Below are positions 1 to 62,404 of a stretch of DNA of 64,000 nt, in pieces; within the stretch, counting starts at the first letter, position 1; every line of letters begins with the position of its first letter. The notes beneath the pieces were generated by a model. The model was not told the origin of the DNA. It was given only the letters and a program-made list of their open reading frames with translations, and made no database searches. Origin of the DNA: Azolla caroliniana (Eukaryota > Plantae > Polypodiophyta); NCBI GenBank assembly GCA_043228905.1, contig JBHGNT010000020.1, forward strand, positions 10,044,001-10,108,000, given 5' to 3'. The position numbers and the translations under genes are program-made.

Positions 1-3000
1 TAACGACAACCGTCGTCGGGACCCCCCGCAAAATGAACCGCGCAGCTCGAACGCGCCCTGGACCAACCCACCAACACACGAGGCCGAGAATCAACCACAC
101 CCCCCCACACACACAGATCGGGCTGGCACCAACAACTCGGCTGCCGTTACCTGCTTCAAGTGCAACCAACTCGGTCACTACGCTACGCAATGCCAAACAA
201 TAGACCGTGGAAAGGCTCCTGCCGTGAATAGTATTATGGCCGACATGCAAAACGTCACAACACGCAGTAAAGCCCAGGCTACCCCATGGCAAGTACAAGA
301 TGAAGTCCAGCAAGTAGCCAAAGAATGGATGGATACGGCCAACAAAAACAATGTGGTGTGCATGCAAACAGAAATGGGAGACGCGACCATTGGAGCAACA
401 CAATCCTCGGCACCATCCACGTCGACAGAAGATGACCAGTTGTGGGACGCCCTTACCAGTTCCAGGATCTCCTTGCTTCTGCATAAACTCTTACCACTCA
501 TGCCGTGTTTTCGGGACACCTTGGCTACACTCACGGCCAACACCCATTCCACCGCGCCACCTGTGCACCTGACCGAGCCAGGAACGGGTCTACCCCTCAT
601 GGTTGCGCAGAATCCAGCCATAAAAATTATGATTAAAGGAAGGGACTTGCACGGGTGCATAATCGACGACGACTCTGGCGTGAATGTCATCAGCGAGGCT
701 ACCTGTCATAAACTCGGCCTGAATCAATGGGAACCTTGCCCCTTTTGGCTTCGGATGGCCAACATACGATCGGTTCGCCCCATCAGATTAATCCGCCACC
801 TCGACTTTACTCTAGGAGGGCACATGTTCACTATCTCGACCGTTGTATTACTACTCGAAGCAGAGGGGGCTTACCCAATGTTACTGTGCATACCATGGTT
901 GCACACAACAAATATCAAACAACATTGGCAGCGCAACATGATCTCGTTTCGCCGAGGAAAGACCAAGGTCTGGATCATAACCGAAGAATGCGTAACCACG
1001 CCCCACAACACCTCGCCGTTATACGCGGAAGGGGTGCACATGCTCGACGAGTTAGCCAATGACAAGGTGGATGACTTCCTAGAAGACCATCCCACTGTCA
1101 TACCTCTCTTCGAAATCGACGCCATGACGGTCATCGACACACCTCTAGACGGGGAAGTCAAGGTGAATACACCTCCCCAGGATGAGCCCGATCCCACCAC
1201 CATCGCAGAATTACGACACACTCGGGACGCTTTTGAACGTGAACTCGCCATCTCCCAATGAGTGAAGGCATCAACGCTCGAAACACTGAACCTCGGTTCG
1301 GACGAGAACCCTTGCACCCTACAGATTGCTAATAACTTACCAGCCGGCGAACGAGCAGCCCTCATACATTTACTCACCGATTACCAATATGTATTCGCAT
1401 GGTCTTACACGGATATGAAGGGTTTGGACCCACAATACTACCAACACCAGATCCATCTTCTCCCGGACGCTCGGCCGGTTCAGCAAAGACGGTACCGGAT
1501 GAACCCCAATAATGCAGCTAAGGTCAAGGAAGAAATAGACAAGCTCCTCTGAGTCAGGTTCATACGACATGTAAAACGCGCCACATGGTTAAGCCCAATC
1601 ATAGTCGTCCCTAAGAAAAACGGGAAAATCCAAGTTTGTGTCGACTACCGCAAGCTTAATGCTGCAACGGTCACAGATGGATTCCCTCTCCTGTTCACGG
1701 ATAACGTTCTCGACACGGTGGCAGGTCACGAATGCTACAACTTTCTAGACGGGTTTAGTGGTTACAACCAAATTAGAATGCACCCAGATGATTAGGAGAA
1801 AACAACATTTGTCACGGAATGGGGTGTTTTCGTGGCAGAAGTAATGATGTTTGGTTTTAAAATGGCGCCGGCCACATTCCAGTGCATCATCACCGAAATT
1901 TTTAACGAGTATATCCCGGCGTTCATGCAAGTCTTTCTCGATGACTTCGCCGTATATGGTCAGCGACTGGAACACATGACCCAGTTACGTCTCTGTCTTG
2001 ATCGATGTCGCCAGGCTCGGTTAAGTTTAAACCCGGCAAAATGCGTGTTCTTGGTCACAAGCGGCAACCTACTCGGGCACATTGTCAGTCAAGAAGGTAT
2101 CGCCATGGACCCGGATAAAGTACAAGCCATCCTAAACGCCCCCGCACCCTCGAACGCAAAAGGCCTCAGCCGATTTCTGGGACAAATCAGATGGCACAGC
2201 CGGATGATACGCCACCTGGCCGATTTCGCGACAACACTACACGCGGCGGTGCATCGACTTCCCTTTCAATGGACTTCAATCAAGGATGAGGCTTACCAAG
2301 GATTAAAATTAATGCTCTTGCATGCCCCTAATTGTACAACCCCCGATATGGTCAGAACCTTTTCACGTCTTCGTGGACGCATCAGCTATCGCCATCGGGA
2401 GCGCACTTATGCAATGACGCCCCCAAATTGGTATCGACCAGTGTATTATGCTAGCCGACGTCTCTCGGCCGCGGAAAAGAACTATTCAACCACCGAACGG
2501 GACGCCCTCGGTATGATCTACAGCATCAGTAAATTTCGGCATTACTACCCTCATGCAAATGGATTGGCAGAATCAACTAACAAAATTCTCCAAACAATCC
2601 TGAAGAAGATCTTCAACGAGAACCGCACTGATTGGGATGACAAGCTCCATAGTGCACTATGGGCTTATCACACTACATTCAAAACGAGCATTCAATCCAC
2701 CCCCTTTCGGATGGCTTTTGGTCTCGAAGCCGTTATGCCCATCGAGTTCCAAGTTTTGAGTCTCCGAGTTCAAGTTAAAGCACGGCTCCCCGAGGCCCAA
2801 TTCGAACAATTGAGGCTGGAACAACTCCTCGAACTTGGCGAGGACCGAGTAGCGAGCATGGCCCAACTTGAACAACGCCAACAACAACGGAAAGCCCTTG
2901 TGGACCGACATCGGAAAGGATTGGAACAAGAACTGACCATAGGCAAACTGGTCCTCATTTTCCAGATGCGACTCGGTGCTATGCCAGGAAAGTTACGATT

Positions 3001-3187
3001 TCGATGGACCAGCCCCTTTTGGATTATTGACGAGTTTAACGGCACGTTCCAGCTCAGCACCCTCACCGGGGAAATTGTCAAAAGCTGGGTGAATGGATTC
3101 CGACTGCGACCATACCAAGGAAATACCCCAGCCAACCCTTTCGTCGAGTCCCTCGGCACGAACAATCCCACGAAGGAGGCCACGCGT
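1..3187 (+). pseudogene. Degenerate gag-pol polyprotein of the old gypsy element
   Basis: CFKCNQLGHYATQC knuckle at 152-193; protease IIDDDSGVNVIS; RT ...QVFLDDFAVYG; RNase H RPVYYASRRLSAAEKNYSTTE; integrase YPHANGLAES...LWAY. In-frame stops at 1259, 1550 and ~1794 fit C>T changes (CGA/CAG). With the insert removed, the frame ends CCC CCT CGG TAA at 10550-10561. Confidence 0.93.
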
Positions 3188-4007
3188 TGTCGTGAAGAAA
3201 ACCGTCCATAGGCGGAATCGGCGCACCTAGGCGTGGGAACCGGTTCTTCACGCGCGCAAGCTCCAAGTAGTACGAAGAAGCGAGTTAGGGGGATAATCGG
3301 CAGGAACGGGCCCTAACATAGGTAGAGACAAAGACCGCGCGAACAGTCTTTTCGGTCGCGCGCGCGAGCTAAGGGACGGCACGAGTCGGCGGCGTAACTA
3401 CGCGGATGCGCGAAGAACGGAGCGGATCCCTGTTCGAAAGGGACAGGGAATAAAGATGACAGGACGGCCTGCTCGTCGGGCTATATAAGAGCAGGAAAGA
3501 GCTGTTGCAGGGGATCTCGCGCGGAGAGGACGAAGTGCTGTCGGACCGTTTCTGGACGCTTCTCTCTCTCTGTTTCCTTCCTTCTTGAGCTCCATAGCTT
3601 TCTGTGCAGGGTTCCGAGGAGGCTCGCGCTGTTTCGAGGAACGCCCGAGTGCTTCCGGCAGCGCCTCCAACCGGCTACCCCCCCCCCCCCCCCCCTTTTT
3701 GCCCGTTTTGTGCGTCGAAGCGAGCAGGCATCGGCATCTGTTCGCCGGCCTGTTCGGTTGTAACCAACCTGTGCCCCATCGAGGGTTGTAGTAGTGTTAG
3801 CCATTTTCTTAATATACATATTAAGTCATTCGCATCTGTCTGTGTCGGTCTCTATTCGCGTTCTCCGTGCTGAAGGGCCGTGTCCCTGTGTATCCCCGGT
3901 CCTGCGTAGCCGGTTCTCTCTCTTTCTCCCCCCCCACGCTTGCTCTTTGGTTCGAGACCCCCGCGGTCCCGCCTCGATTCCACACGCACTTGCGTAATAT
4001 CTCGACA
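3188..4007 (+). repeat. 5' LTR of the young gypsy element
   Basis: Direct repeat of 9729-10545; TGTCG/CGACA termini; TATA box CTATATAAG at 3481-3489; C18 tract. Confidence 0.97.
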
Positions 4008-4011
4008 TCTT

Positions 4012-4029
4012 TGGTGAACCCGACGTGAA
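4012..4029 (+). promoter_or_regulatory. Primer-binding site complementary to the tRNA-Trp 3' end
   Basis: TGGTGAACCCGACGTGAA lies 4 nt after the LTR CA. It is the reverse complement of ...TTCACGTCGGGTTCACCA, the plant cytosolic tRNA-Trp 3' end (from memory). Confidence 0.9.
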
Positions 4030-4051
4030 AGAGGCGGCAGAAGAGCAGAAG

Positions 4052-6178
4052 ATGAGGGGGTCGGATCTTGCAGAAGCCATGGCTTCGGCCGTGGATCGGA
4101 TTGTAAACGCGCGCGAGGGCACCGGTGCCCTCGACAGAGCTATTGAGGCGGTCGTCGGCACGATCGGCCGGTTCGATGGGAGGGATGCCACGAAGTATCT
4201 GGCGTCCTACGGTGCAGAAATGTTGATGCGGGACATTCCGGAAGAGAGGCGTCTTGCCGGATTTCCCCGAGTGGCAATGCCGAGCATCCATGCGGAGGTG
4301 CTCGAGGTGCGGGCGGAGAGCCGTACCTGGGAGGAGTTCGAAGGCCGGCTCCTAGAGAAATACGGGCTGGACGACGCGCTCCGGCTTTCGAAGCGAAGGT
4401 TCATGGAATGGGTGGAGTCCCCGGGGAAGGGAAGAAACGCGACGGCACTCCTCCGGGAGTTCGAGGAAAACTTTGCGCGCCTTTCGGCGCTCGACCGAAC
4501 CATCCTGGACACGAGCCGGGTCTTGCTGTTCGTCAAGTCGGTCGACGAGCGGGATCGGGAGCACGTGGGCCTCTTGCTGGAAACCGAAGACGGGCTCACC
4601 ACCGACTGGGCGGCTGTCAAGAAAGTCTGTGGCCGTTTCGACAAACGGCGAGAATGGGCGGATAACGGGGCGGCCGGGTCGGGCTCGGTCGCAGCAAGGA
4701 AGTTCGAACCAGCGCCACAGGTGCGGAAGGAAGAGACCCGAGAGTGGTTGGAAACCGGTTCGGCTTCGACCGGCGTAGTCAGAGGCTCAACCGGAGGAGC
4801 GGCGCTGGAGGAATTGACGAGGGCGGTAAAGGACCTCCAAATCGCGCAAGCCCGAAGGGAAGGTGGCGAACCGGCTCGTGACCGACGGCCGGCGGCAGGA
4901 AACAGGTGCATGTGGTGCGATGAAGTCGGCCACATTCGGAAGGACTGCGGCGACTTCGCGGAGGCGCTAAGGGACAGGGTGGTGTACCTGTGGGAAGGGC
5001 GGGTGCATGCCAGCGACACCCGAAGGGCCCTGAGCCGAAACGACGGGCGAGGTGGTATGAAAAGGTTGATGGAAGAGGCAGCGGCCCGACACGCGGAAAC
5101 CGTCCACTACTCGGCGTCGGCCGGCATTCGAGTCGGGGGCGGCGAGGCCCAAAAGGAAAGCAAAGCCGGATTCTGGCCGACGATGCTGGGAGGCCTTGCC
5201 GGTGCAAGGCTTGAAGGGGAGGAATCGGACCGCGCGGAGAAACGAGTACGGGAGATAACCGGGTGGAGCGACCCGGTCGAGGAAAGGACGGGCTTCGTGG
5301 AAGCCGCTTGCCAGAACTACGGGGCTCTGGTAGAAGAGAAGCGGGTGGGGAAGCCCGGGACGACCGGGCCCTCACAACGATACGAGACCCGGTCCGGGCC
5401 ACGACGGGACGAAGCCGGCGGGCCCGGTACGAAAGATAAACCCCAGAAGGGCGGGTACCGTCTGGGGACGGAGATAGAAAGGACCACGGACTTACGAAAG
5501 GTCCTGGAGGAACGGATCCTCGACAGCAAGGTGGAGCTGTCGTTACGAGAGGTGCTGGGAATCGCCAAGAAGGAGTTCCACGACTCCATCGTGGACTTGG
5601 TGAAACGGAAGAGGCTGTCAACGGAGACAGAACCGGAAAGACCAGTGGAAGTGCGGACGACGCACCTAGACGACATGGCGCTGGGAGACGAGTGGGCGGA
5701 AAGCCACTATTCGAGACCACACTGGGCCCAAGCGACCACGGAAACCCCGGTGAAGATCGGCGATGTCCAGGAACCGGTGATAGCTTTGGTGGACCACGGA
5801 TCGGAGATCAACTTGATGTCCATGGACTTCTATAAAAAGGGCAAATGGCCGATCAACACCAAGCACGGGTGGAAAATAAGGGCGGCAACGCGTGCCACCG
5901 AGGAGCTGCACGGGGCCTGTCCGAATGTGCGAGTCAAGATCGGCGACGTCGAGATTGACCAGCACTTCTTCGTGCAGGAGACATCTTCGCATCCGGTCAT
6001 ACTGGGGGAGCCGTACATCACGGCGGCGCGAATGGAGACCAAGGTGCTGGACAACGGTTCGGCCTACGCGAGGGTCAAAAGCCAAGACGGGCGCCATTCG
6101 GTCCAGTTTCTGACGGTACGGCCGAACCACGAACGTAACCGCGACTCCCTCGGTTCCGAAAACCGAGAGGATTTTTAG
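4052..6178 (+). CDS. ORF1: Gag (CCHC knuckle) plus aspartic protease
   Basis: First ATG of the 4025-6178 ORF is at 4052; CMWCDEVGHIRKDC knuckle; protease motif ALVDHGSEINLM and flap motif VILGEP. Confidence 0.92.
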   Translation: MRGSDLAEAMASAVDRIVNAREGTGALDRAIEAVVGTIGRFDGRDATKYLASYGAEMLMRDIPEERRLAGFPRVAMPSIHAEVLEVRAESRTWEEFEGRLLEKYGLDDALRLSKRRFMEWVESPGKGRNATALLREFEENFARLSALDRTILDTSRVLLFVKSVDERDREHVGLLLETEDGLTTDWAAVKKVCGRFDKRREWADNGAAGSGSVAARKFEPAPQVRKEETREWLETGSASTGVVRGSTGGAALEELTRAVKDLQIAQARREGGEPARDRRPAAGNRCMWCDEVGHIRKDCGDFAEALRDRVVYLWEGRVHASDTRRALSRNDGRGGMKRLMEEAAARHAETVHYSASAGIRVGGGEAQKESKAGFWPTMLGGLAGARLEGEESDRAEKRVREITGWSDPVEERTGFVEAACQNYGALVEEKRVGKPGTTGPSQRYETRSGPRRDEAGGPGTKDKPQKGGYRLGTEIERTTDLRKVLEERILDSKVELSLREVLGIAKKEFHDSIVDLVKRKRLSTETEPERPVEVRTTHLDDMALGDEWAESHYSRPHWAQATTETPVKIGDVQEPVIALVDHGSEINLMSMDFYKKGKWPINTKHGWKIRAATRATEELHGACPNVRVKIGDVEIDQHFFVQETSSHPVILGEPYITAARMETKVLDNGSAYARVKSQDGRHSVQFLTVRPNHERNRDSLGSENREDF

Positions 6179-6234
6179 AGAGGACTGCCAAGGCGTGGGG
6201 CCGCGACAGTCCGGATGCTCCGGGAAAACCCCAC
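6169..6234 (+). promoter_or_regulatory. Putative -1 programmed ribosomal frameshift signal (G GAU UUU plus pseudoknot)
   Basis: Heptamer 6169-6175; 6-nt spacer; stem 1 GGACTG 6182-6187 / CAGTCC 6207-6212; loop GTGGGG 6195-6200 pairs with CCCCAC 6229-6234. Confidence 0.75.
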
Positions 6235-9200
6235 ATCTGTACAAAAAAAACGTGTACAATAGGTAGGAAATTTTGCTTCTCCGACAGCGGAGCATGTGCG
6301 TCGGTCGGCATCACCGGCCGAGAGAAAACCAAGGCGGAGGGGAGACTTCGGGCGTGCGGAGTTCTCGGCCCTGACGAAGAAATCAACGGAGCCGTGGAGG
6401 CAGTCTCCTTCGACGACACCTTGGGAATGCTGGGGAGGGTAGTCGAAGAAGACCTTATCGAGGACCGGGCGATACCGGTATGTTCAGAAAAAATGTACGA
6501 AGTCATCGCGGACTTCGGTCGAGGGCTCGAGTCGGAACGGACGGCCCGAGTTAGCACCAAGTACAAGACTGTGGACCGGAAGGTGAGGCCAGTTGCGGCG
6601 CCCCTACCGGAGGGCAGCGAATCCCGAATCAAAGGGGTTGCATCGGACCCCAGCTTACGGAATCCGGCCTGCATAGGACACACCTTCACCAACGAGACGC
6701 TCCGTGAGCTGAAGATCGGTGGGGGCGGGTTCCTACTGCCGGCGGAGGAAGACCGGTTCCGGAGAATGCTCGGAAGGCACGGGAAAGCCTTCGCATTCTC
6801 ACCGGAGGAAATCGGGTGCGTAGACCCGACGACCGTAGAGCCGATGGTGATATTCACGGTACCGCATGTACCGTGGAATCTCAAGCCAATTCCGGTTCCG
6901 AGAGCTCACATCCCGAAGTTGATGGAGCTGTTGAAGCAGAAAGTCGATATGGGCATTCTCGAGCCATCGAGCGCCCCGTACTCGAACCGGTGGTTTACCG
7001 TACCAAAGAAAAACGGATCGTTGCGCTTCATTCAGGACCTGCAACCGGTCAATAGGGTGACCATTCGGAACGCAGGGATCGGACCGACCATAGATGAGTT
7101 CGCGGAGGCCTTCGCCGGAAGGTCGATTTACTCGGTCGGTGATCTATATTCAGGGTACGACCAGTTCCAGCTAGCCGTGGAGAGCAGAGACATTACGACG
7201 ATGCGAACTCCCCTCGGCCTAGTGCGGATGTGTACGCTGCCGCAAGGAGGGACCAACTCGGTGGCCCACATGGTGAATGCAATGAACAAGGTGCTGAGGG
7301 ACTGCATCCCGGACATCACCATGCCGTTTCTAGACGACATCCCGATCAAGGGATGCCCGGTAGAAGAGAAGGACGAGACGATCGGGCCGGACGGATGCCG
7401 GCGATTCGTGGTAACGCACATCGACGACTGCGAGAAGGTGCTGCAAAGGCTAGAGGATGCGAGGCTAACCTTCTCGGGGGAGAAATCAGCCTTCGGGCAG
7501 TCGGAAATCATGGTGGTCGGACACTTATGTGGGCCGTATGGCCGGAAACCGTCTCCGGCAAAGGTAGAAGCCATCTCCGCGATGAAGCCCGACTGCAGCT
7601 CGGTCACGGAAGTACGAAGATTCCTGGGGGCATGCGCATTCTACCACATATGGATCCCGCATTACGCGCACGTCGCGGAGCCGCTGTACGGGTTATTGAA
7701 GAAAGGGCGAAGATTCGAATGGCTAGACAAGCACACGGAGTCGGTCCGGAAGCTGAAGGAGGCTCTTTCGGCAGCACCGGCGCTCCGAAAGGCCGTCTAC
7801 AGGAAGGGCACCCCAGTGTACATAACGGTTGACACGAGTCCGACCGGAATCGGGTGGGTCGTCAACCAAGAAGATGAGGACGGCAATCGGTTTCCGGTCC
7901 GATTCGGTGCGAAGGTCCTCAGCGAACGGCAGCGAGGATACGCCCAGGTTAAACGCGAGCTCTGGGGTATCGTTTCGGTGGTGAAGGCCGACAAGGACTA
8001 TCTGATCGGGACAGAGGTAATTATAGAGACGGATTGCATGCCGATTCTCGGCATGATTTCCGGATGCGCGACGCCGGACCTGGCAATGCTCAGGTGGATA
8101 GCGTACATCAAGTCCCTGGACCCGGAAATACGACACATTTCCGGGAAAGACAACGCCATGGCCGACATGCTTTCAAGGGCAAGATTCGATGACGAGGGCG
8201 GCATGGTTTCGGAGGACGAAGACGTCGGCGTGGACTTCTTCGAGACTGCGTATGTAGCAACCGACGGAACAAGCACTCCGGCGCTTAACGACTTCGACGC
8301 GAGCAAGTACGACGGGGAGTGGCTGCAGATCGGTGGGTTTCTGAAGACAATGACGCCCGATGCGTCATGGACGAAGGACGAGGCCAACCGGATCCGGAAG
8401 AAAGCGTACCGGTTCTTTCTCCGGGATGGCTATCTATGGAAGCACCCGAAGAAGAAGGACGGCGTTCCGCTCCGGGTGGTGGCGATGAAGGAAGAACAGG
8501 AGGAGCTGCTGACGGCCTACCACGACAGCCCTTGGGCTGGACACCGTGGAACATGGGCTACGTTTGAGAAACTGAAGGGGAAGTATTGGTGGCCGGGGCA
8601 GTACCAGGACGTGCATCGGTTCGTGACAACTTGCGAGAGCTGCCAGATGCACTCCGTAGTCCGACATCGAGACGAGCTTCACCCTACGTACCCTCCGGCC
8701 ATCCATTTCAAATGGATGGTAGATCTAGTAACGATGCCAATGGGAGTAGGACAGATGCGGTACCTGGTCCTAGCGCGGGAGGATCTGACGAACCAGGTGG
8801 AAGGTCGGGCCCTTCCGAACAAAACGACCGCGGCCGTATGCCGGTTCCTAATCGAGGACGTGATATGCCGGTACGGGTGCGTCGGGAAGATCGTGGCTGA
8901 CCGAGGGGAGTTGGACGCCGAAGAAGCCGCGGAGCTGTTCGACCGGCTGGGAGTCAAGCTCTCGCTCACCACTGCGTACAATCCAGAGGCGAATGGAAAG
9001 GTGGAGCGAGGACACGGACCGATCGTCAAGGCGTTGGTTCGGGCATGCGGAGGCCGAGTCGGTGACTGGCCGCGGCTGCTACCTTATGCTTTGTGGGCAG
9101 ACCGGACCACGCACAGTTCGGTAACCGGGTACATGCCGACAGAGCTCATGTTCGGCCAGAAGCCGATCATGCCGATGGAACGGACGATCTCCTCGTGGGC

Positions 9201-9657
9201 AACGGTCGACTGGAGGGACGAGATGAGCCGGGAGGAGTTGTTGGCCGCGCGCATACGACAGCTCGAGCGGAGACCGGAGGACGTGGAACTGGCTACGGAG
9301 AAGCTCCGAGTAGCGAGGAAAAAGAACAAAGCCAGGTTCGACCGAACGCACCGGCTCCGACCGAAGAAAATCGAAGAAGGTGACTGGGTGCTCGTCTACG
9401 ATAGCAGCCTCGACAACCAGCACCGAGCTACACGGAAGTTCGCACGAAGGTGGTTCGGGCCTTACGTGGTACAGAGCGCCAATGACAACGGGACATACCA
9501 CCTGGCGGAACTCGACGGCACGAGAATGACGATACCGGTTGCAGGGAAGCGGATCAAAGCGTTCAAGAAGCGACACGACGACGAGCCAGACCCGGCTCTC
9601 CTGGTCAGCAGTGACGAACGATCCGAAAACGAGGATGAACCGACGGGCGAGGAATGA
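6169..9657 (+). CDS. ORF2: RT-RNase H-integrase, probably expressed by -1 frameshift from ORF1
   Basis: Frame is open from 6139 to the TGA at 9655-9657. RT GDLYSGYDQ...PFLDDIPI; RNase H TVDTSP...ETD; integrase H-H-C-C and DDE core (MVDL, VADRGE, NGKVER). Confidence 0.93.
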   Translation, partial: GFLERTAKAWGRDSPDAPGKPHICTKKTCTIGRKFCFSDSGACASVGITGREKTKAEGRLRACGVLGPDEEINGAVEAVSFDDTLGMLGRVVEEDLIEDRAIPVCSEKMYEVIADFGRGLESERTARVSTKYKTVDRKVRPVAAPLPEGSESRIKGVASDPSLRNPACIGHTFTNETLRELKIGGGGFLLPAEEDRFRRMLGRHGKAFAFSPEEIGCVDPTTVEPMVIFTVPHVPWNLKPIPVPRAHIPKLMELLKQKVDMGILEPSSAPYSNRWFTVPKKNGSLRFIQDLQPVNRVTIRNAGIGPTIDEFAEAFAGRSIYSVGDLYSGYDQFQLAVESRDITTMRTPLGLVRMCTLPQGGTNSVAHMVNAMNKVLRDCIPDITMPFLDDIPIKGCPVEEKDETIGPDGCRRFVVTHIDDCEKVLQRLEDARLTFSGEKSAFGQSEIMVVGHLCGPYGRKPSPAKVEAISAMKPDCSSVTEVRRFLGACAFYHIWIPHYAHVAEPLYGLLKKGRRFEWLDKHTESVRKLKEALSAAPALRKAVYRKGTPVYITVDTSPTGIGWVVNQEDEDGNRFPVRFGAKVLSERQRGYAQVKRELWGIVSVVKADKDYLIGTEVIIETDCMPILGMISGCATPDLAMLRWIAYIKSLDPEIRHISGKDNAMADMLSRARFDDEGGMVSEDEDVGVDFFETAYVATDGTSTPALNDFDASKYDGEWLQIGGFLKTMTPDASWTKDEANRIRKKAYRFFLRDGYLWKHPKKKDGVPLRVVAMKEEQEELLTAYHDSPWAGHRGTWATFEKLKGKYWWPGQYQDVHRFVTTCESCQMHSVVRHRDELHPTYPPAIHFKWMVDLVTMPMGVGQMRYLVLAREDLTNQVEGRALPNKTTAAVCRFLIEDVICRYGCVGKIVADRGELDAEEAAELFDRLGVKLSLTTAYNPEANGKVERGHGPIVKALVRACGGRVGDWPRLLPYALWADRTTHSSVTGYMPTELMFGQKPIMPMERTISSWATVDWRDEMSREELLAARIRQLERRPEDVELATEKLRVARKKNKARFDRTHRLRPKKIEEGDWVLVYDSSLDNQHRATRKFARRWFGPYVVQSANDNGTYHLAELDGTRMTIPVAGKRIKAFKKRHDDEPDPALLVSSDERSENEDEPTGEE

Positions 9658-9715
9658 AGACGGGCCGGTTTTCTCAGTCCCAACTCTCTTGGCGCATACC
9701 GGAGGATGCGCGGTT

Positions 9716-9728
9716 AGGTGGGGGCGGA
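9716..9728 (+). promoter_or_regulatory. Polypurine tract of the young gypsy element
   Basis: AGGTGGGGGCGGA directly before the TG of the 3' LTR. Confidence 0.75.
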
Positions 9729-10545
9729 TGTCGTGAAGAAAACCGTCCATAGGCGGAATCGGCGCACCTAGGCGTGGGAACCGGTTCTTCACGCGCGCAA
9801 GCTCCAAGTAGTACGAAGAAGCGAGTTAGGGGGATAATCGGCAGGAACGGGCCCTAACATAGGTAGAGACAAAGACCGCGCGAACAGTCTTTTCGGTCGC
9901 GCGCGCGAGCTAAGGGACGGCACGAGTCGGCGGCGTAACTACGCAGATGCGCGAAGAACGGAGCGGATCCCTGTTCGAAAGGGACAGGGAATAAAGATGA
10001 CAGGACGGCCTGCTCGTCGGGCTATATAAGAGCAGGAAAGAGCTGTTGCAGGGGATCTCGCGCGGAGAGGACGAAGTGCTGTCGGACCGTTTCTGGACGC
10101 TTCTCTCTCTCTGTTTCCTTCCTTCTTGAGCTCCATAGCTTTCTGTGCAGGGTTCCGAGGAGGCTCGCGCTGTTTCGAGGAACGCCCGAGTGCTTCCGGC
10201 AGCGCCTCCAACCGGCTACCCCCCCCCCCCCCTTTTTGCCCGTTTTGTGCGTCGAAGCGAGCAGGCATCGGCATCTGTTCGCCGGCCTGTTCGGTTGTAA
10301 CCAACCTGTGCCCCATCGAGGGTTGTAGTAGTGTTAGCCATTTTCTTAATATACATATTAAGTCATTCGCATCTGTCTGTGTCGGTCTCTGTTCGCGTTC
10401 TCCGTGCTGAAGGGCCGTGTCCCTGTGTATCCCCGGTCCTGCGTAGCCGGTTCTCTCTCTTTCTCCCCCCCCCACGCTTGCTCTTTGGTTCGAGACCCCC
10501 GCGGTCCCGCCTCGATTCCACACGCACTTGCGTAATATCTCGACA
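9729..10545 (+). repeat. 3' LTR of the young gypsy element
   Basis: Near-identical to 3188-4007; followed by TSD GCGT. Confidence 0.97.
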
Positions 10546-11091
10546 GCGTCCCCCTCGGTAAGAACCCACCAACATTCCAAAGTAGACATTAGGTAGGATT
10601 AGGCATAGTTTTAGCAATTAGTTAGTTCCACCTACACCACCTACCACATCACCCAAATCACGTCATGTTTAGAGGCACACATTAGTCACTTTCACATTCA
10701 CTTAAGTATTTAAAGGCACATGCACAGCATCCAAGGCAAAGCACTAACTCCCTAGGACACGTGGCCATAATATCCTATTATGGCATCCACGCTCAAGAAT
10801 CTCCAGGCTCCTCTTCATGCACAAAACCCTAGGCGTTCGTTAAAAAACAGTTACCCCAAGCCCACCCCACACACAAACGTTTTCTTGCACACCCAGCTTT
10901 CATCGCTCCCACGCTCTCAAGCCTCCTCTCGCTCTCAGCGCGTTCATCGCTCCCACCACTCTTGCTCACAAGCCCTCTCTTGTCCTCGTAGCCCCTCTGC
11001 CACACCACAACCATCTCCTTCCCTCACTCTGTCTCGGCCTGGTCGAATCCTCCTTCCCCAATCTTCCACACAGCAGAACCCCAAGTCCATT

Positions 11092-14000
11092 ATGCCTCTT
11101 GCAGCTTCACAGGAAACCCGCTCCTGGCTTCAGGAACGAGGATTAGGTGGTTATTTAAAGGTGATCGATGCCCCTGCACACCCTGATGCCCAAACGATCA
11201 CACGCCGAATCCACCCAGACACAGTCACCAACAATATGATTCGTACTACCTTGGACCTGAAGCGAGGAGGTGATCATGAGGTCGAGATTCCCCCTTCCAC
11301 GACCCTGAAGGAATACTTTGGTGTGTATTCCATATCTGGTAAAGCCTACGGCACCTACGGTGGATTCAACAAGGCATTCGGAGAACTCGCTCGCATCCTG
11401 ATGGAGTGCATACCAACCCTACAAGTATGCCATAGAGCAAAGCGGCGATCATTATCAGTGCCTACGAGGGAAACAAAATCGACTGGGGAATCATCACAGG
11501 CGAAGGAATCCGGTAAACGTTTGTTGCCTGTGATCAATCACTTCCTTACAGTCCTCTACCCACCTCCTTTCAGTTTCCCCTCGTCGCATCCTGACCCCTC
11601 CACCACCACCAAGGAAACAACGGGAGAAGATTTTGGAGATAACTCAGGAAGAATGGGAAGACTCCTCGTCTTCTCCGCCTCCCTCAGGCCTTGGAACCCT
11701 GCTTCCGCCTCGGCCCCACCCCCACCAAAAACACAAAGACAACGGGCGGTAACAGCAACCCGTGTCGAATGGGATGAGGCCGAGGAGGCCATCCCCGAGG
11801 ATGTCACCATACGCTAGAGGCCACCAAGGACATCAATGACCTCTCCACAACCGAGCCCACGGCCCACAAGCTAGCAGCCCTCGGCCATCCGGCAGCAAAA
11901 GAGGAAACAGGCCAAGGAGCCAACACCACCGGCCCCAGACGCACAGGATCAGCCGCCAAAATGACGTTGCATCATTTGAGAGGCAACCACAAAAACCGAA
12001 GGCGACCAACATCAGAAATCAAAAGAGGCCAGCCCCACCTCCACGGACATAGTACCAACGGAGTCATGGCTCCAAGTCGGTACGATCGAGCATGGACAAA
12101 CCACACAGATATCAGAGGAGGAAGTCCTCGGTTACAAAGATCTCCCCGCAGAGGCATACGAGTTTAGTGCACTAGTTCGACTGGGCACAACTTACGAGTT
12201 AATGCATTTCCTCACGCACGCCCAAGTAGCTACCGCCGCTTGTATGGCCGAGGAGCACTCCGAAACAAAGATGATTCAATGCGATCTAATGGGTGAAATC
12301 GAACCTCATGAAGATCGAGCCTTACAGAAGATAGGACGGAAGAAGCAAGTACAAAATGCTTCGCTCCTCATGGAACTACCGGATCTGAACATGGCCTTAG
12401 TCGAGGCATATCGCAATCTACACCACACTACTCAGGCAGCCAAGGACATGGCCCGATGTATCAAAACGACGCATCAGCAAGCCAAATGGGCTACCGACCT
12501 ATGGCAAGCCGCAGAGGAGAAACTGACGACATTCACACAACAACAACTGCCCTTAATCCTCCCTACGCCGAGTGACGTTGTCTCACCAGCCGCTCTTCCG
12601 AACCCGAGCTCGAGTGTTGACGGTACCGTCGCACACAAAGACAACATCGTCCACCCCAAGATAGCCACAGCCGAGGCTAACACAATGACGAACTCGGTAC
12701 AGACAAGTGAGCCAATGTCACGGGCAGATATCAGCCCGCACCCCCAAACCAGCCAAGCCTCCACGCAAACACCACCACCTCCGGTCGTCATGGAACGAGT
12801 GACACAAACAGATAGGGAGTCCTCGGCCCAAATCCAGCAAGCGGCAACCCAAACAGGGCCTCCCCTTAGGGACTACCAAGAGGAGCTTCAAGCCCAGATC
12901 ACTCTGGCCGAGTTGGCAGAATAGAACCACGACAACATTCTTGGCCAGCTACAGGAACAAGCCGTGAGCCGCAAAGCGAACCTCAAGCGACTGCTTGCTG
13001 AAAGGTCGGTCGCGCTTGAAGCACGAGAACGGGAGGTGATGACCCTCCAGGTCTCTATCACTGAGGCTAAAGAACGTTTCATCAAAGAAACCGAATGGAA
13101 TAGCCAACGGGAACAGGAGCTCTTCACAGACAACCAGGAATTACGACGTCATCAAAGAGCCTTCCAGGACATGGCCAACGAACATATGCAAAAGTGAAGG
13201 ATCTCGGAGGAGCAACGAACAAAATTTTCCGATGCATATCACCAGTTGCAAACCGAGCACATTGCCATCAAAGAACAACACCGGGACGCTTGGCAACAGG
13301 AAAGGGACAAAACTGTAGCTCACCTCACCCAGCGTTATGAGCAGACCATCGCGCTCATCACTGGAAAAGCAAAAGATAATCAAGCTACTTTAGCACTCTT
13401 CGCCCACAAAAGCCAAGCCGAAGCCAAGGCCGCAAGGGAGGCACTGGAAGTTCACCGCGCGAGCATCGGCATGGACGATACCAAAATCAAGACCCTAATC
13501 AACAAGTATCGCCAACAATTCACCACGAAGATCAAAGAAACGCTTGACCATGTCTGGCAGGGGTGGTCAGCCCAAGCTGTAGACCTACACATACTACGCG
13601 CGGATGCCGAGAACCGATGGAAGGAGGCCCAAGGGTTTTACAAGATGGATGACACCAGCATCCAGACCCTCCGTGAAGACTTAATGGAAGAATATCATAC
13701 CTTGGCAACATCCCACATCGCGGCCATCGAGCAACTCTTGGAGGAATTCAACGACGTTCTAATGGTGTTTCGTTTAGAAGCCGAAGCATACGAGGAGGAA
13801 CGACTCGCTACCGGGAGTCACAGAGCTCCCACAAACACCGAGCAAGGAACCGAGTCACTCCCCACGGCAGCTCGATCGAAAGAACCTGCCCTTACCAACC
13901 TCCACATCCCAACCGAGCCACTCACCACGGCAGTTAGACCGGAAGAACCTGCCCCTACAGATGTCCACATCCCACCGGAGCCACATACTATAACCCCAAC

Positions 14001-14154
14001 CCTGACTGAATCGGTCCCAACAAAGGAGGGCACACACGACGACACCGTCATCCCCGACTCGGCAACACAACCTCCATCACCAACCCCACCTGTTGAGCAG
14101 CCAACCCAACTCCACGCCCCCGAGGATATCCTCGGCATATTGGAAGAGGAATAA
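11092..14154 (+). pseudogene. Large degenerate extra ORF downstream of pol in the old gypsy element (Pro/Thr-rich linkers, long coiled coil)
   Basis: Track ORFs at 12202, 12964 and 13246 share one frame, broken only by TAG (12922) and TGA (13195). The N-terminal part from MPLAASQETRSWLQERGLGG has probable frameshifts. E/Q/K/A heptad-like composition at 12870-13800. Confidence 0.65.
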
Positions 14155-14251
14155 AACCAACCTATAAGCCCTCGTAGGAACGGGCAATTTTTGTAATTTG
14201 TGTTGTTTTGCCAAATCCATGGTGAACCGTGGGTCCGATGAACAAAGTCCT

Positions 14252-14268
14252 GTCCCACGGGCGTGCCA
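14252..14268 (-). promoter_or_regulatory. PBS-like sequence (tRNA-Arg type) on the minus strand, at the position where the PPT is expected
   Basis: Plus strand reads GTCCCACGGGCGTGCCA-GG-TGTTG; minus strand reads ...CAACA-CC-TGGCACGCCCGTGGGAC. This matches the tRNA-Arg(UCU)-type PBS TGGCACGCCC(A/G)GTGGGAC with one gap. Confidence 0.65.
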
Positions 14269-14270
14269 GG

Positions 14271-14750
14271 TGTTGTCCATAGGACAAAAATATAAATTAA
14301 TTAAATGTAATACGTCGGTGGGTAAGGCGAGTAGGTAAGGTAGAGTTAGGTAAACGCTGAGTTTCGAGCCTCACAGTCAACCGACCGCTCGGCTCTGTAT
14401 GAAGAAAAAGAAAAAGTATATAAACGGAGGTTTGCGTACCTTGGCAGGAGAGAGATATCCAGAGCCTAGGCGAGGTCTTTTCATAGTTATAAGAGCTTTG
14501 TAAGGTCACCGGTTGTGGGTCGTGCTTTTGTAATCATAGCTAATTGTTTGCAGTGATACATATCTATTAGCTCTTGTTGTTTTCATATGTGTGCCGTTGT
14601 TTCTAAGGTCTCAACTACGTATACGACCCGGGCTCTATTCCGGGTATGCTCTCCATTTTCTTCCCCTAACGACACCTCTGTGCGCAAGTCTTCACGTTAC
14701 ACTTCCCTTGATACCGATAGCTTGTAGGCATATCGAAGGTGTTTCCAACA
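14271..14750 (+). repeat. Putative 3' LTR of the old gypsy element (480 bp)
   Basis: TGTTG...CAACA termini; TATA-like GTATATAAAC at ~14416 on +; follows the extra ORF. The partner LTR is outside the window, so it cannot be confirmed. Confidence 0.65.
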
Positions 14751-15098
14751 GAACGGTTAACACCCCACACCCTCTATTATGGGCATGACCATAAATTATC
14801 ACGTGGTAAGATTGTACCATAGTATTCTATACACATGGATAAAGTGTGAGGGTTAAATGAGAGTATAAAGAAAGGATGATTTCTTTTAATCCTAGAAATT
14901 GGGACAACCCATAAGGGCCAAGCGTGAACTTGCATGGGGTCCTTAGGTCTGGCTATAAATACGAGGGCTAGATACCCTCATTAACACATCATTCAACTAC
15001 ATTGAGACTTGCTTAAGTGGTGATCAAACTCTTGTAAGCGAGTGCGTCAGTACCAGGTACAACTCGATGCCATTGACGGTGGTATAAGACGTCGATTG

Positions 15099-15538
15099 TG
15101 TCATGATATGGCAAGACTCGAACCCATGACCTTAGGTTATATGGGTCGAGCTCTTGACCATTAGACCATCTATTGTAATACGTAGGATATTATTTTCATT
15201 TACATTTTATTATAGGAAATTAGTGTATATTCCAGATTTCTCTGGAACATTCTAGAAGCTTCAGGATTACTCCTGAAAACACTATAAAAGAGGGCACTAG
15301 GCATTATGTTGAACCAAATTGGTTCAACGCCAGTCTTAAGCCTTTTAGCCACCATTGTATATTCTCTTCATATAATACATATCTTTCTTATCATCACACA
15401 CACACTCTCTCTCTCGATCTCTCTCTTTCTCTCTGTCTCGCTCACTTCTTCCTTCTCTCGAAGAAGTTCCACACCTCTCATAGTACTAATCCTTCGTTTA
15501 GTACTAATTCCTTCTCTGTCTCAGTACTGTTCATGACA
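15099..15538 (+). repeat. 5' LTR of the chromovirus (440 bp)
   Basis: Repeat of 20342-20716 plus 21187-21253; TATAAAA at 15283-15289. Confidence 0.96.
15115..15168 (-). promoter_or_regulatory. tRNA-derived Pol III-type A box/B box module, antisense, at the LTR start (repeated in the 3' LTR at ~20358-20411)
   Basis: Minus strand reads TGGTCTAATGG - 33 nt - GGTTCGAGTC. Confidence 0.6.
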
Positions 15539-15540
15539 GT

Positions 15541-15552
15541 TTGAACCAATTT
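15541..15552 (+). promoter_or_regulatory. Self-priming PBS
   Basis: TTGAACCAATTT lies 2 nt after the LTR and is exactly complementary to AAATTGGTTCAA at 15316-15327, ~30 nt downstream of the TATA box. No TGG tRNA-type PBS is present. Confidence 0.85.
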
Positions 15553-15612
15553 TCCCTACCTTCTGTCTCTCTCATTTCCTACTAATCTTTTATTCATCTT
15601 TTCTTTCATCCC

Positions 15613-16764
15613 ATGGCCACTGTTAGCGCTGAAGAATATCAATCTGTTTTCTCGGAATTTCAATGCTTGAAGGAGAAGTTCCATGCTTTGGAACAAGAAA
15701 ACCAACGGTTGCTGGGGGATCTTCAGCAAATCTCCTTAGAAAAGCAGCAAACGCAACAACAGCATGGGGAACTTGCGTTACGCGTGCAACAACTCGAAGC
15801 CACCATCGTAGCGATGCAACAACAAGGGCCCGGAACACAAGGGATTCATAAAGAACCTAAGATTGGCCTTCCCACGAAGTTCGATGGAACGTGATTGCAG
15901 TTTAGAGGGTTCCTTAACCAGGTACGATTAGTTATTCAAATGCATCCTTCCCAATATCCCACCGATGCATCACGAGTGGGTTTAGTAGGCACTTTGTTAA
16001 GTGGCTCAGCGTTGTCATGGTTCGCTCCACTATTAGAAAAGGAATCTCCGTTACTCAACAATTTTGAAGAGTTTCTAGGTGAGTTTAAAGCATGTTTCGG
16101 AGATACTGACAGCATCAGGACCGCAATCAACAAAATCCGGCGATTACGCCAAGGTGACCGTCCAGCCTCCGCATACGCTGCAGATTTTCGCCTACTCGCC
16201 GCCGATATCCCTTGGGATGATCAAGCGTTGATGGAGCAATTTCGTTATGGTTTACGCAACGACGTCAAGGATTTACTCTTGACCTTCCCCGAAGAGCCAA
16301 AGTCCTTAACAGAAGCAATCAGTCGCGCGGTGAGATGTGACAACCGCCTCTTTGAGCGACGTTCGGAACGACAGCTACAGATGTCGAGGGCAAGATCAGA
16401 GCCCACCTACGCCTCTGTGGTAGCAAGACCTTTTCCGAGGGAGTCATATAATGCGCCTCCAGCGAATACTCCGACTCCGATGGAGATTGACACTACATGT
16501 CGTCGAGGGCCATTATCCAAAGAAGAAAAGCAGCGACGCCGTACAAATCGACTATGTCTTTACTACAGTGGACCAAGACATATCGCAATAAATTGCCCCC
16601 ATAGGCCAAGAAGACAAGTAAACCAAATAGTCGCTAGTTCTAATTGTACTAAATCCGAGCCTATTTCAGTAGGGATATCTGATAGTCCTAATAGTACTAA
16701 TATCCCAGATCTAGCAAACAAATTTGATGTCCTTAGTCAGTTAGAAGAAGAGTTAAACGACTAA
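15613..16764 (+). pseudogene. Chromovirus gag with one premature stop
   Basis: Coiled-coil N-terminus; KFDGT-TGA (15892-15894, probably CGA>TGA); retrotransposon gag core (LRQG, PMEID); degenerate knuckle CLYYSGPRHIAINC. Confidence 0.9.
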
Positions 16765-16803
16765 GTCCAGCCAAAATAGGAGTTGTTTGGTTGGACAGCC
16801 CTA
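16752..16803 (+). promoter_or_regulatory. Putative -1 frameshift signal (G UUA AAC plus 11-bp stem)
   Basis: Heptamer 16752-16758; 6-nt spacer; GTCCAGCCAAA 16765-16775 pairs with TTTGGTTGGAC 16786-16796. The -1 frame is the pol frame. Confidence 0.75.
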
Positions 16804-19800
16804 GATCTGTGCAGCCCATTAGTGGTTCCATTCCCTCTAAGCAAGTTAGTGATGTGTTCGTAGCCCAAGTAATAGTTAGTACTAAAAGTACCCCTCCAGT
16901 ACATGTCCTAGCACTCCTAGATTCCGGAGCTAACTCTTGCTTTATGGATAAGAAATTTGCTCAAGCTCATAAGATATCCCTAAGAAAACTCCAATGTCCA
17001 GCCTCTATAGTAGTCATTGATGGACGTCCCATTGCTTCCGGAAATATCATAGAAGAGTCGGAGCCCATTAATATTGTCCTAGATAACTTAGCATGTGTAG
17101 TATCATTTAATATTATTAGTATCCCAGAACATCCTATAGTTTTAGGACTACCGTGGTTCAAGTTACATAACCCAGACATAGATTGGAGAACAAGAGAAAT
17201 CCGGTGTCGACAAACCCAAGGGTCAAATCAGAAGATGGCAACCATTTCGCTACGTCAGTTGCGTAAAGAAGGGCACAAGGAGGAAATGTTCCTCTTTGCA
17301 ATATCAGTAAACCCCTCCAACACTACTAAAGAAGAATCCACCGTTCAACTTCCCGAGAAGTATTGTCATTACGCCGATGTGTTCGATAAAGTACAAGCCA
17401 ACACACTTCCTCATCATCGACCGTACGATTGCCCCATCGATTTACAACCTGGAAAAGAGCTGCCATGGGGACCGATCTACAATTTGTCACCAACCGAGCT
17501 GGAAGTCCTTCGGGCCTATATAGAGGAGAATTTGGAAAATGGTTTCATTCGGCATTCGAAATCTCCAGCCGGCGCGCCCATTTTCTTCGTCAAGAAAAAA
17601 GATGGATCGCTTCGTCTCGTTGTAGATTACCGTGGCTTGAATAAGGTTACAATCAAGAATAGGTATGCTCTTCCCCTTATCTCAAGTCTTTTAGAATGGA
17701 TCAATGGTGCCAGGTTCTTCACGAAGATCGACTTACGGGGAGCATATAACCTCGTACGGATCCGACCAGGAGACGAATGGAAGACCGCGTTTCGCACCAG
17801 ATATGGGCACTTCGAATATACTGTCATGCCGTTCGGCCTCACTAATGCGCCGACAGTCTTCCAGCACATGGCTAATGATATATTCCGAGATCTATTGGAT
17901 GATTGTTTGATCATCTATTTGGATGATCTACTGGTTTATTCACAGACCCAAGAAGAACATGATTCTCATGTACTATTAGTACTAAAACGACTTCGAGAAC
18001 ATGGTCTGTATGCAAAGCTGGAAAAATGTAGTTTCGGGTGCAACCAAGTGGAATTTCTCGGCTACATCATTTCGTCAGAAGGCATCTCCATGGACCCAGC
18101 TAAGGTCAAAACGGTGGTAGAATGGCAGACTCCGCGTTCGGTGCGGGATGTGCAATGCTTCTTAGGCTTTGCCAATTTTTACCGGAAGTTCATACAAGAT
18201 TACTCAAAGATCGTTCTACCTCTCACACAACTTACCAGGAAGGGACAACCGTTCATCTGGTCTGAAGAAACGGACATGGCTTTCGAGAGTCTTAAAAAGG
18301 CATTTACATTGGCTCCAATTCTAGCTCATGTCGATCCAGAAAAACCATTCATTATCGAAGCTGACGCATCGGATGTTGCATTGGGGAGCATTCTGTCACA
18401 ACAGGGGAATGATGAGAAGCTACATCCTATGGCTTTTCACTCACGCAAGTTTGATGCCGCCGAAATCAACTACGAAATTCATGATAAGGAGCTATTGGCA
18501 ATAGTGGACTCTTTTATGCAATGGAGGCACTTTCTGGAGGGATCCTCTCATCCAGTCACCGTATTTAGTGACCACAAGAATCTTGCCTACTTTCAGGATG
18601 CTCGTGTGTTGAATCGACGTCAAGCTCGGTGGGCCCACTTCCTCACGCGTTTCGACTTCAAAATTACATATCGTCCGGGGAGGCACCAAGGGAAGGCAGA
18701 TGCATTATCACGGCGTTCGTATCTAGCACCCCGTCCCGGCGAGCCAGCTTTCGATAACCAAAAACAAGTCATCTTGGGACCGGCACAACTACAAGCAACA
18801 CAGATCTTTGACATGCCTATGGATTCCCGCGTTATCGATACCATACGTGAAGACTTGAAGACAGATGTGTTCGCTCAAGCTATACTATCACAAATTGATC
18901 CCTCTCGAGCGTCGTGTTCACAGTCGCAACCACCAGGTACGGACTATCGGCAATTCAAATACCATGATGGATTACTCTTCTTTAAAGAACTTTTGTATGT
19001 TCCTAATGGTTCTTGCCGCCTTCGAGTAGTACAAAACTGTCATGACACATATACAGCTGGGCATTTTGGTAGTACTAAAACATTACATTTAGTACAACGA
19101 TCATTCTGGTGGCCCTGTATGCAACAATTTGTCGAGGATTTTGTTCGGACTTTGTGATACATGTTGCAGAGCGAAAATGCCAAGGCAGCATCCATATGGT
19201 TTATTAGAACCATTACCAATTCCAAGCAAGCCATGGCAATCCATTGCTCTAGACTTCATCACAGATCTTCCAGTCTCTAAGGGGTTCAATGCGATTCTAA
19301 CAGTGGTCGATCGATATACGAAGATGGCTCATTTCTTGCCATGTACTAAGGAGATCTCCAGTGAAGACACTGCCAAAATTGTCATGCGTGAAGTATGTCG
19401 GCATCATGGACTTCCCGATAGTATCATCAGCGACCGTGGACCCCAGTTCGTGTCAAAATTCTGGAAGCACCTTTTTAACATGCTCAAGGTCACTTGTAAC
19501 CTCTCCTCCGGCTACCACCCACAAACCGACGGCCAAGCTGAACGAACAAATCAAACGTTGGAGCAATATCTGCGGTGCTTTCTCAGCTATCATCAGGACG
19601 ACTGGGCAGATATTCTCCACTTCGCCGAATTTGCCTATAACAACTCTATCCACGCATCCACTAAAGTTACGCCATTTTATGCTTATACGGGATGTCACCC
19701 CCGGTGGAGTGTACTTGAAACCCCAGAGGTGTCCAAAAATCCGTGTGCGGAGGATCGTTTGGAGCGGTTACGCAAGATACAAGCGGATTTATCTACTCAT

Positions 19801-20349
19801 CTCCAGCAAGCTCAACAAACACACAAGGTCTACGCGGATCGTCATCGACTTCCATCCAGTTTTAATATTGGAGATCGGGTGTGGCTGCTACGACGACACA
19901 TCAAGACTACTCGCCCATGTGAGAAATTGGATTATCGGCGATTAGGTCCTTTCCGTATTATTGGAAAGATTAATGATGTCGCTTTTCGTCTCGATCTACC
20001 TCCTCAACTTCGGATACATCCGGTGTTTCATAGTTCTCTCCTCGAACCCTACCACGAGAGCACCATCCTAGGACGTCTTATCCAACCTCCACCCCCGATC
20101 GAGCTTGAAGATGGGCCGGAGTACGAGGTTGCCGCCATCCTTGATTCCAAGATTGTTCACAACAAGCTCTACTATCTAGTCGATTGGCTAGGCTATAGCC
20201 CCAGCGAACGTACTTGGGAACCGATCGAGAATGTAACCAATGCCCGTGCTCTTCTTGAAGACTTCCATCGTCAATATCCACACAAACCGGGTCCTCAATC
20301 CAAGACGACTCGTGACACTCGTCGTTTTAAAGGGGGGATAGTGTCATGA
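16752..20349 (+). pseudogene. Chromovirus pol (PR-RT-RH-INT-chromodomain) with a frameshift lesion at ~19152
   Basis: LLDSGA; YLDDLL; EADASD; SDRGPQF; GQAER; chromodomain YEVAAILDS...YLVDWLGYSPSERTWEP. An extra T in ACTTTGTGAT splits the integrase Zn finger between ORFs 16791-19157 and 19129-20349. Confidence 0.93.
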
Positions 20350-62000: not shown

Positions 62001-62404
62001 CGTGCCCACACAAGAGAACATTGCAGACCTCTTCACAAAGGCTCTACCTAGGGAGAAGTTTGAAGCTTTCCGCAATGCTTTAGGCCTAATCCCATTTGTG
62101 GATTCATCTCTATCCACATAGCTTGGCACTTGTTTAACCATGAGTGTCAACTCCTTGTTCACTGCATCACTCCCAAGGGGGATTTGTTGACATATTTTGG
62201 TAGTGATGTGTGAACACACTTAGGATAGTGATGTGTGTGAACACACTTAGGATAGTGATGTGTGTGAACACACTTAGGATAGTGATGTGTGTGAACACAT
62301 TTAGGACAGTAATGTGTGAACACACTTAGGACAATGATGTGTGTGAACACACTTAGGACTACAAGGGCATTTTTTCCCTCTGTCTAAAAATACTCTTAGA
62401 ACCA
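62000..62404 (+). mobile_element. Ty1/copia 3' fragment (end of RNase H, PPT, start of LTR with 25-27-bp tandem repeats)
   Basis: VPTQENIADLFTKALPREKFEAFRNALGL; AAGGGGGA then TGTTGACA at 62185; six copies of TAGTGATGTGTGTGAACACACTTAGGA at 62201-62358. Confidence 0.8.

Follow-up and report, generated by a model that had tools for sequence, protein, structure and literature searches.

Plus-strand DNA synthesis in a clade of plant LTR retrotransposons is likely primed by host tRNA-Arg(UCU), at a site that replaces the polypurine tract (PPT). From sequence comparison, the probability of this reading was estimated at approximately 78%. The reading rests on the missing PPT, the conservation of the site, the covariation of a hairpin beside it, and fossil junctions where exact tRNA is joined to U3. 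In a broader form, held with nearly the same confidence, the clade gave up the PPT, and host tRNAs, often two isoacceptors, would prime both strands via a three-way DNA-tRNA junction at modified position 58, in young high-copy families that would still be active. The element is of a known kind, and its second-strand start is apparently undescribed. No description of a tRNA site replacing the PPT was found in the accessible portions of the open full texts of PubMed Central and bioRxiv, a corpus outside which lie subscription papers, Repbase reports and theses.

A complete Ty3/gypsy element reaches with its 3' part into the window, i.e., the whole analysed stretch of 64,000 nt. Extension to the left located the partner LTR 1.8 kb outside the window, from G000:C20:10042156 onward, and the 5' LTR, the PBS and the start of gag lie there. 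The target site duplication (TSD) flanks the element on both sides, left of the 5' LTR and right of the 3' LTR (14763..14767, +). It reads CCCCA and not GAACG or GAAC, which the sequence-only reading had expected. The 3' part of gag-pol, i.e., zinc knuckle, protease, RT, RNase H and the C-terminus of integrase, was found at 1..3187 (+), and its RT was placed in the clade of intact relatives. In this copy gag-pol is degraded by stops and frameshifts, and an internal deletion joins RNase H to late integrase sequence near 2545. ORF2, an extra sense-strand ORF, lies in pieces at 10771..14154 (+). Its homology to the ORF2 of sister families, where the frame is open over 877-1001 aa, was judged by eye. 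No Pfam match was found for ORF2 of the window copy; for this ORF and its counterpart at L182:7021-9651, only a sub-threshold leucine-zipper match was seen. The 3' LTR, delimited by alignment of 30 genomic matches, is 492 bp long (14271..14762, +; TG...CA). Its existence and start were as first read, but the end is not 14750, since the terminus ...GGTTAACA was located at 14762. The LTR pair shows 20 differences in 492 bp, i.e., 95.9% identity and a K2P distance of 0.042.

An unrelated, younger gypsy element of Phygy type is nested at 3188..10545 (+), with the 4-bp NCGN TSD GCGT and an ordinary PBS and PPT. It was used as an internal control. It has near-identical LTRs of ~820 bp, a gag with DUF4100, and an open pol frame of 1,172 aa.

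The 17-mer GTCCCACGGGCGTGCCA at 14252..14268 (+) is identical to positions 59-76 of host tRNA-Arg(UCU) except that a single C (C66) is absent. It ends in CCA and is followed by the spacer GG (14269..14270, +) and the LTR start at 14271, which bears out the claim of a tRNA-like 3' end 2 nt before the LTR. Within the window it is the sole match at two or fewer mismatches, where 0.01 are expected by chance on average. The absence of a PPT, also claimed earlier, was verified before the 3' LTR of the window copy: only 10 of the 20 nt upstream are purines, and the closest purine-rich 13-mers lie ~115 nt upstream of the LTR, at the end of the ORF. By its complement on minus-strand DNA, 14252..14268 is a predicted primer-binding site directed into U3. 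The 5' PBS of the element is an ordinary plus-strand TGG sequence with a 13-nt match to the 3' end of tRNA-Arg(UCU).

A host tRNA ending in the sequence of the site, as the sequence-only reading supposed, exists apart from the missing C66. Genes for tRNA-Arg(UCU) were recognized at four of eight loci examined, out of 13 pattern matches. Inside the window no tRNA gene was detected by ARAGORN, and an Rfam search of 14000-14800 gave no match. As minor observations, a degenerate tRNA-Arg(UCU) cluster and an array of six tRNA-Lys(UUU) genes within 3 kb were seen at L368 and L369.

The site is a family feature. In family A, to which the window copy belongs, the 17-mer was found within two mismatches at 28 of 29 3'-LTR junctions, the window copy included, and the remaining one carries a short deletion. 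None of the 29 has a PPT, whereas control elements of the same genome do. All 30 5' junctions show a 5-nt gap followed by plus-strand PBS-type sequence, some with substitutions, and a TSD was present in each of the six full elements checked (four exact, two with one mismatch). A local rearrangement, one of three options offered by the sequence-only reading, is refuted by these junctions and TSDs. Across the genome (523 Mb, 1,503 contigs), the exact 17-mer occurs 1,340 times and the reversed control never. Thirty sampled loci span several LTR families, all with 2 nt ahead of the LTR.

Upstream of the 17-mer, the likeness to the tRNA continues. The stretch at 14229..14238 (+) matches tRNA-Arg(UCU) positions 49-58, i.e., the 5' side of the T stem and the T loop, at 9 of 10 positions. 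Here (-23 to -14), 75 of 102 distinct upstream contexts of 25 nt agree with the tRNA at eight positions or more out of 10. Between tRNA positions 58 and 59 lies a 4-bp hairpin (14240..14250, no strand assigned; positions -12 to -2), which splits the tRNA match precisely at 58/59; one of its pairs is broken in the window copy. Pairing was seen in 360 of 408 cells, compared with 160-180 of 408 (and 100 of 306) in slid controls. Four fully paired haplotypes account for 37, 17, 14 and 5 of 115 contexts. The contexts share descent, and the covariation is to be read as about three independent compensatory changes, not 102. This hairpin differs from the bracketing stem first proposed (14247-53/14279-85), which can form here but is not conserved, with 7/7 pairs in 12 of 115 distinct contexts.

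By its complement on minus-strand DNA, the T-arm match would pair with the T arm of the tRNA. Cofolding with the host tRNA, in which RNA parameters served as proxy for the RNA-DNA hybrid, gave -14 to -24 kcal/mol for the minus strand of six sites versus -4 to -10 kcal/mol for the plus strand. In the minus-strand cofold the hairpin is looped out and C66 bulged; the plus-strand RNA can form a stem of its own that encloses the hairpin. Mismatches to the tRNA occur at 59-60 or 67-70 in some families, and in some subfamilies of family B the T-arm match is altered in favour of self-pairing, which makes the extended pairing less certain than that of the 3' terminus.

Sister families share the site with different partners. 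Family B is young, with copies ~98% identical and open gag-pol and ORF2 frames, and family D is non-coding. Both have a 5' PBS for tRNA-Arg(UCG), genes of which were found in the genome (13-nt match in family B), and yet carry an Arg(UCU) site at the 3' LTR. The site thus does not act as a partner to the PBS of the same element. Family C has a degenerate site, with two substitutions and the missing C relative to the tRNA, in all 20 junctions examined out of 100. The spacer between CCA and LTR is family-specific, i.e., GG, TG, AG, TA or TATG, and is retained in junction fossils; in every family CCA lies 2-5 nt from the left end of the LTR. Family-D-like non-coding elements were also noticed (L134, L141 and metagenome L222, L226, L227 and L250), in which the 5' PBS apparently alternates between the UCG and UCU types of tRNA-Arg, with the 3' site retained.

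A metagenome scan gave 112 stretches with the site, which appear to come from one assembly series and were counted as one source. Mostly they are 67-95% identical to loci of this genome, and thus come from related plant DNA. One contig, filed in a bacterial MAG, holds a full element (L379) with RT-RNase H 67% identical. Before its 3' LTR were found a GGGTT motif, a hairpin, an 18-mer ending in CCA, and AG, followed by TG. The 18-mer agrees with the tRNA of this genome at only 14 of 18 positions, which counts against the reading; the tRNA of its own host may differ. Its PBS is of a third kind unlike those of the other families, which we take to be the tRNA-Arg(ACG) type. No clean TSD was found for L379. 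Its pol frame continues ~1,000 aa beyond integrase, with no clear match to ORF2. No match was obtained in a viral contig collection by pattern or protein, or in a genome contig collection by site pattern. Plant-type LTR retrotransposons in contigs placed under bacterial MAGs in GTDB (L379-L382, L391) are probably misbinned or chimeric assembly.

Fossil junctions with exact tRNA were searched by the mature tRNA 18-mer with CCA, and all of its 27 genomic occurrences were examined. Sixteen are on the U5 side. Eight of these are conversions and read-throughs in families with a shorter native PBS, and the other eight were placed there solely on the likeness of their spacer and neighbours. Three of the 27 are chimeras (L131, L132, L140) in which a PBS copy is annealed on the 3' site. 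One (L149) joins the 18-mer to pol via a match of only 2 nt, which suggests that RT may switch onto tRNA as a template. The U3 side accounts for seven sites from four events, i.e., two clean, one ambiguous and one mosaic, and these few events form the fossil support for tRNA priming.

The cleanest U3-side case is the C16 element of family C (TSD AATAG), which has two extra LTRs at its 5' end. Both extra junctions read as the U5 end, exact tRNA 59-76, spacer AG and U3. The element's own 3' site has two substitutions and the missing C compared with the tRNA, and family-C RNA is perfect against it over the last 7 nt only. In the standard scheme, an LTR abutting a PBS can only be copied from plus-strand DNA (as described in PMC13191261), so that RT must have encountered the tRNA at the 5' end of this DNA. 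Copying ended next to tRNA position 58, and an RT stop there is described as a known mark of copying modified tRNA (PMC13191261). The AG before the outermost C16 LTR was considered as a retained spacer and was ruled out, because it belongs to the TSD.

At L130, in family D, ~46 nt of tRNA, in which A58 appears as T, are followed by the spacer TATG and a 5' LTR with a UCG PBS; the right flank is hidden by an assembly gap. In the C2 cluster of family B, which is one duplicated event, ~56 nt of exact tRNA precede TG, the LTR, and then PBS and gag. This case is ambiguous, since its left flank lies within a non-coding element that has LTRs of the same type. L133 is the mosaic, with the tRNA copy ahead of a 3' LTR. 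The U3-side copies have the exact host sequence, including the C missing from the element, and stop after position 59 or extend towards the D arm. They are copies of tRNA-Arg(UCU), whereas read-through copies of tRNA-Arg(UCG) in families B and D were seen on the U5 side only (3/3 non-gene matches). Exact tRNA joined via the family spacer to U3 is the footprint expected from tRNA attached to the plus strand.

Several by-products of the site were also observed. The tRNA-like 3' site captures PBS copies of other families at L131, L132/L133 (G000:C3:8087109-8094713) and L140. The C3 capture product is an element with TSD CTTCA, in which an inverted family-B inside lies between family-D-like LTRs. 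The 3' site yields inverted and tandem-LTR products, and several of these have become fixed in the genome. L142 (G000:C10, ~14171000-14180800; TSD GTATG) and L375 show extra-LTR or inverted junctions with read-through tRNA copies and RT stutters. The L142 junction was considered as a sign of precise primer removal, and this was ruled out because AAGT is also tRNA-derived microhomology.

Among the options of the sequence-only reading, priming of the plus strand by a host tRNA is the one supported, by the 5' LTR followed by a plus-strand TGG PBS and by the fossils that join exact tRNA to U3. From the two sites, their geometry and conservation, and the aberrant U3-joined copies, all present in the genome, we infer annealing, extension and removal of the tRNA as follows. 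A tRNA-Arg, i.e., UCU, UCG or another by family, would prime the minus strand on the sense RNA. After the first strand transfer, RNase H would strip the RNA and expose the complement of the 3' site on minus-strand DNA. There tRNA-Arg(UCU) would anneal via 67-76 and 59-65 with C66 bulged, and 49-58 would probably pair too, with the hairpin of the element looped out at 58/59. RT would then extend A76 through the spacer, U3, R and U5. Normally RNase H would remove the primer and integrase would trim the spacer. If primer removal failed, the finishing minus strand would copy the attached tRNA and leave the fossils.

To our knowledge, retroviruses and LTR retrotransposons are regarded as sharing plus-strand priming from the PPT, a purine tract that resists RNase H. 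The priming variety described in PMC6317226 and PMC5371799, i.e., half-tRNA, self-priming and bipartite PBS, concerns the minus strand. If the reading is true, a successful clade with more than 1,300 copies would show that the PPT rule is not obligatory, and it would be the first LTR retroelement to receive its plus-strand primer in trans. The way in which RT and RNase H distinguish primer from substrate would become testable, and tRNA supply and tRNA fragments would gain a second control point on elements. Annotation is affected as well: software that uses PPT and PBS to orient or score elements can misorient the clade.

Other explanations of the site were weighed against these data. In the main alternative, the primer may be the element's own tRNA-like RNA, captured once, which would survive RNase H and be cut after CCA as a non-purine PPT; the fossils would then come from RT switching from the leftover primer to free tRNA. 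This explanation needs no new priming chemistry and agrees with the self-folding of the plus-strand RNA around the hairpin, with the tRNA switching at 2 nt of homology suggested by L149, and with the position of the L133 copy before a 3' LTR. It is nevertheless unlikely, for it leaves unexplained the match to tRNA, T loop included, across families with diverged LTRs and different 5' primers. The C16 junctions are exact tRNA in spite of the 7-nt limit of the family RNA, and in the loci retrieved no 5' LTR was seen with an element-type site on its left side. A further explanation, very unlikely, gives the site another job, i.e., RNA circularisation with the PBS, packaging or a small-RNA decoy, with the plus strand starting elsewhere, or takes the locus as rearranged. 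The complementarity of the site to the own PBS in families A and C and the PBS copies annealed to it in L131, L132 and L140 speak for such a job. However, B, D and L379 have a different PBS with the same kind of site, and PBS-to-3'-end circularisation as the purpose of the site was rejected for this reason. The plus-strand primer sets the left end of the LTR, as described in PMC5371799, and CCA stands within a few nucleotides of that end in all families. Rearrangement is excluded by copy number and TSDs.

The third option of the sequence-only reading, that the reverse-transcribed RNA is antisense to gag-pol, or that both strands are used, would make the 3' site an ordinary minus-strand PBS. 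The site has the standard PBS geometry on that strand, the design is symmetric, and the copies of the C2 cluster and L133 are readable as PBS read-through on an antisense template. Even so, this option is hardly credible. The sense-strand PBS is demonstrably used, as shown at U5 by read-through copies and by PBSs converted to all 18 nt, whereas the 3' site is essentially never converted in its native context. Simple conversions number four versus 321 native 5' PBSs and zero versus 1,340 native 3' sites (Fisher p = 0.0014), in a comparison where the family mixes differ between the 5' and 3' sets and counting the mosaic L133 would weaken p. The copies at L130 and C16 stand on the left side of 5' LTRs and not at the 3' junction, and the far end of an antisense template would still be without a PPT.

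Priming by host tRNA at this site resembles known systems in part. As in canonical PPT priming (HIV-1, Ty1, Ty3, Tf1), the primer would be RNA on minus-strand DNA, with its end a few nucleotides before U3. Unlike the canonical tract, the site is not purine-rich but identical to a host tRNA, and the primer would act in trans. In Ty3 and Ty1 the PBS is described as not perpetuated from the tRNA (PMC5371799), and the rare conversion of the 5' PBS in the clade resembles this. The bipartite PBS of Ty3, the 3' part of which is complementary to the tRNA on the RNA and serves minus-strand priming (PMC5371799), is similar in that a tRNA-related sequence lies close to the element's 3' end and the T arm is involved. 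In contrast, the site of the clade is tRNA-identical on the RNA and can bind tRNA only once copied into DNA. Read-through copies of tRNA at the PBS were reported for Culex cqgypsy_1 (PMC3286476) and as minor HIV strong-stop products (PMC13191261). Those copies are likewise made by RT, have a CCA end and adjoin the LTR, but they belong to the U5/PBS side, whereas copies in the clade occur on the U3 side too, with a tRNA that differs from the PBS type in families B and D.

The domain order GAG-PR-RT-RH-INT was obtained by Pfam on the open family-C frame and on L379, and RT and RH were also recognized in the window copy. A zinc knuckle is present in the family-C polyprotein. Pfam detected no aRH (RVT_3/RNase_H) in the polyprotein or ORF2 and no chromodomain at the C-terminus of integrase, which indicates that the element is not a chromovirus. 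The native RT_RNaseH matched strongly across the whole profile, and its catalytic residues were judged by eye. Families A-C and L379 form one 100/100 clade, which also holds unnamed proteins known from protein sequence alone. Elements of this genome with aRH, i.e., aRH-Tat, are a separate branch of the tree outside this clade and have normal PPTs. In two short contigs of aRH-less relatives outside the clade, a purine run comes straight after pol, with putative LTR boundaries. The tRNA site looks derived and clade-specific in this comparison.

The closest named proteins come from the liverworts Riccia (51-55%) and Marchantia (49%), followed by angiosperm proteins (40-43%). The latter, labelled Athila-like from their domain content, form their own 100/100 branch within an open polytomy at the base of Athila/Tat. 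Athila PBSs are described as 72% Asp (PMC6317226), and the tRNA-Arg PBS of the clade differs from the dominant tRNA-Asp/Asn of Athila. Phygy, with a 4-bp NCGN TSD and a tRNA-Trp PBS (PMC6317226), does not fit the 5-bp TSD and Arg PBS; the nested element does fit Phygy. The element is a non-chromovirus without aRH and thus not a classical aRH Tat of the TatI-III, Ogre or Retand kind. Within OTA, i.e., the Ogre/Tat/Athila superclade (PMC6317226), aRH-less Tat Z1/Z2 elements are reported from non-seed plants and gymnosperms (PMC10508981; PMC13468544). The element probably belongs to this group, with which it was compared by published description; it may instead fall in a non-seed-plant Athila branch. 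The shared features are the domain order GAG-PR-RT-RH-INT, the lack of aRH and chromodomain, the 5-bp TSD, the tRNA-Arg PBS and the extra 3' ORF. The clade differs, with the Tat side compared by description, in having no PPT and an inverted tRNA site. In the main texts of PMC10508981 and PMC13468544, as far as available, the terms PBS and PPT are unmentioned.

Farther right in the window, a chromovirus with gag, pol and chromodomain was found at ~15094-21259, its right LTR apparently in pieces (20337-20716, 21182-21259); it is presumably Tcn1-like. Arrays of a self-complementary 20-bp unit, 83-bp and 27-bp tandem repeats and a palindromic repeat were observed at 57700-58100, 59190-59780, 62207-62366 and 62970-63075.
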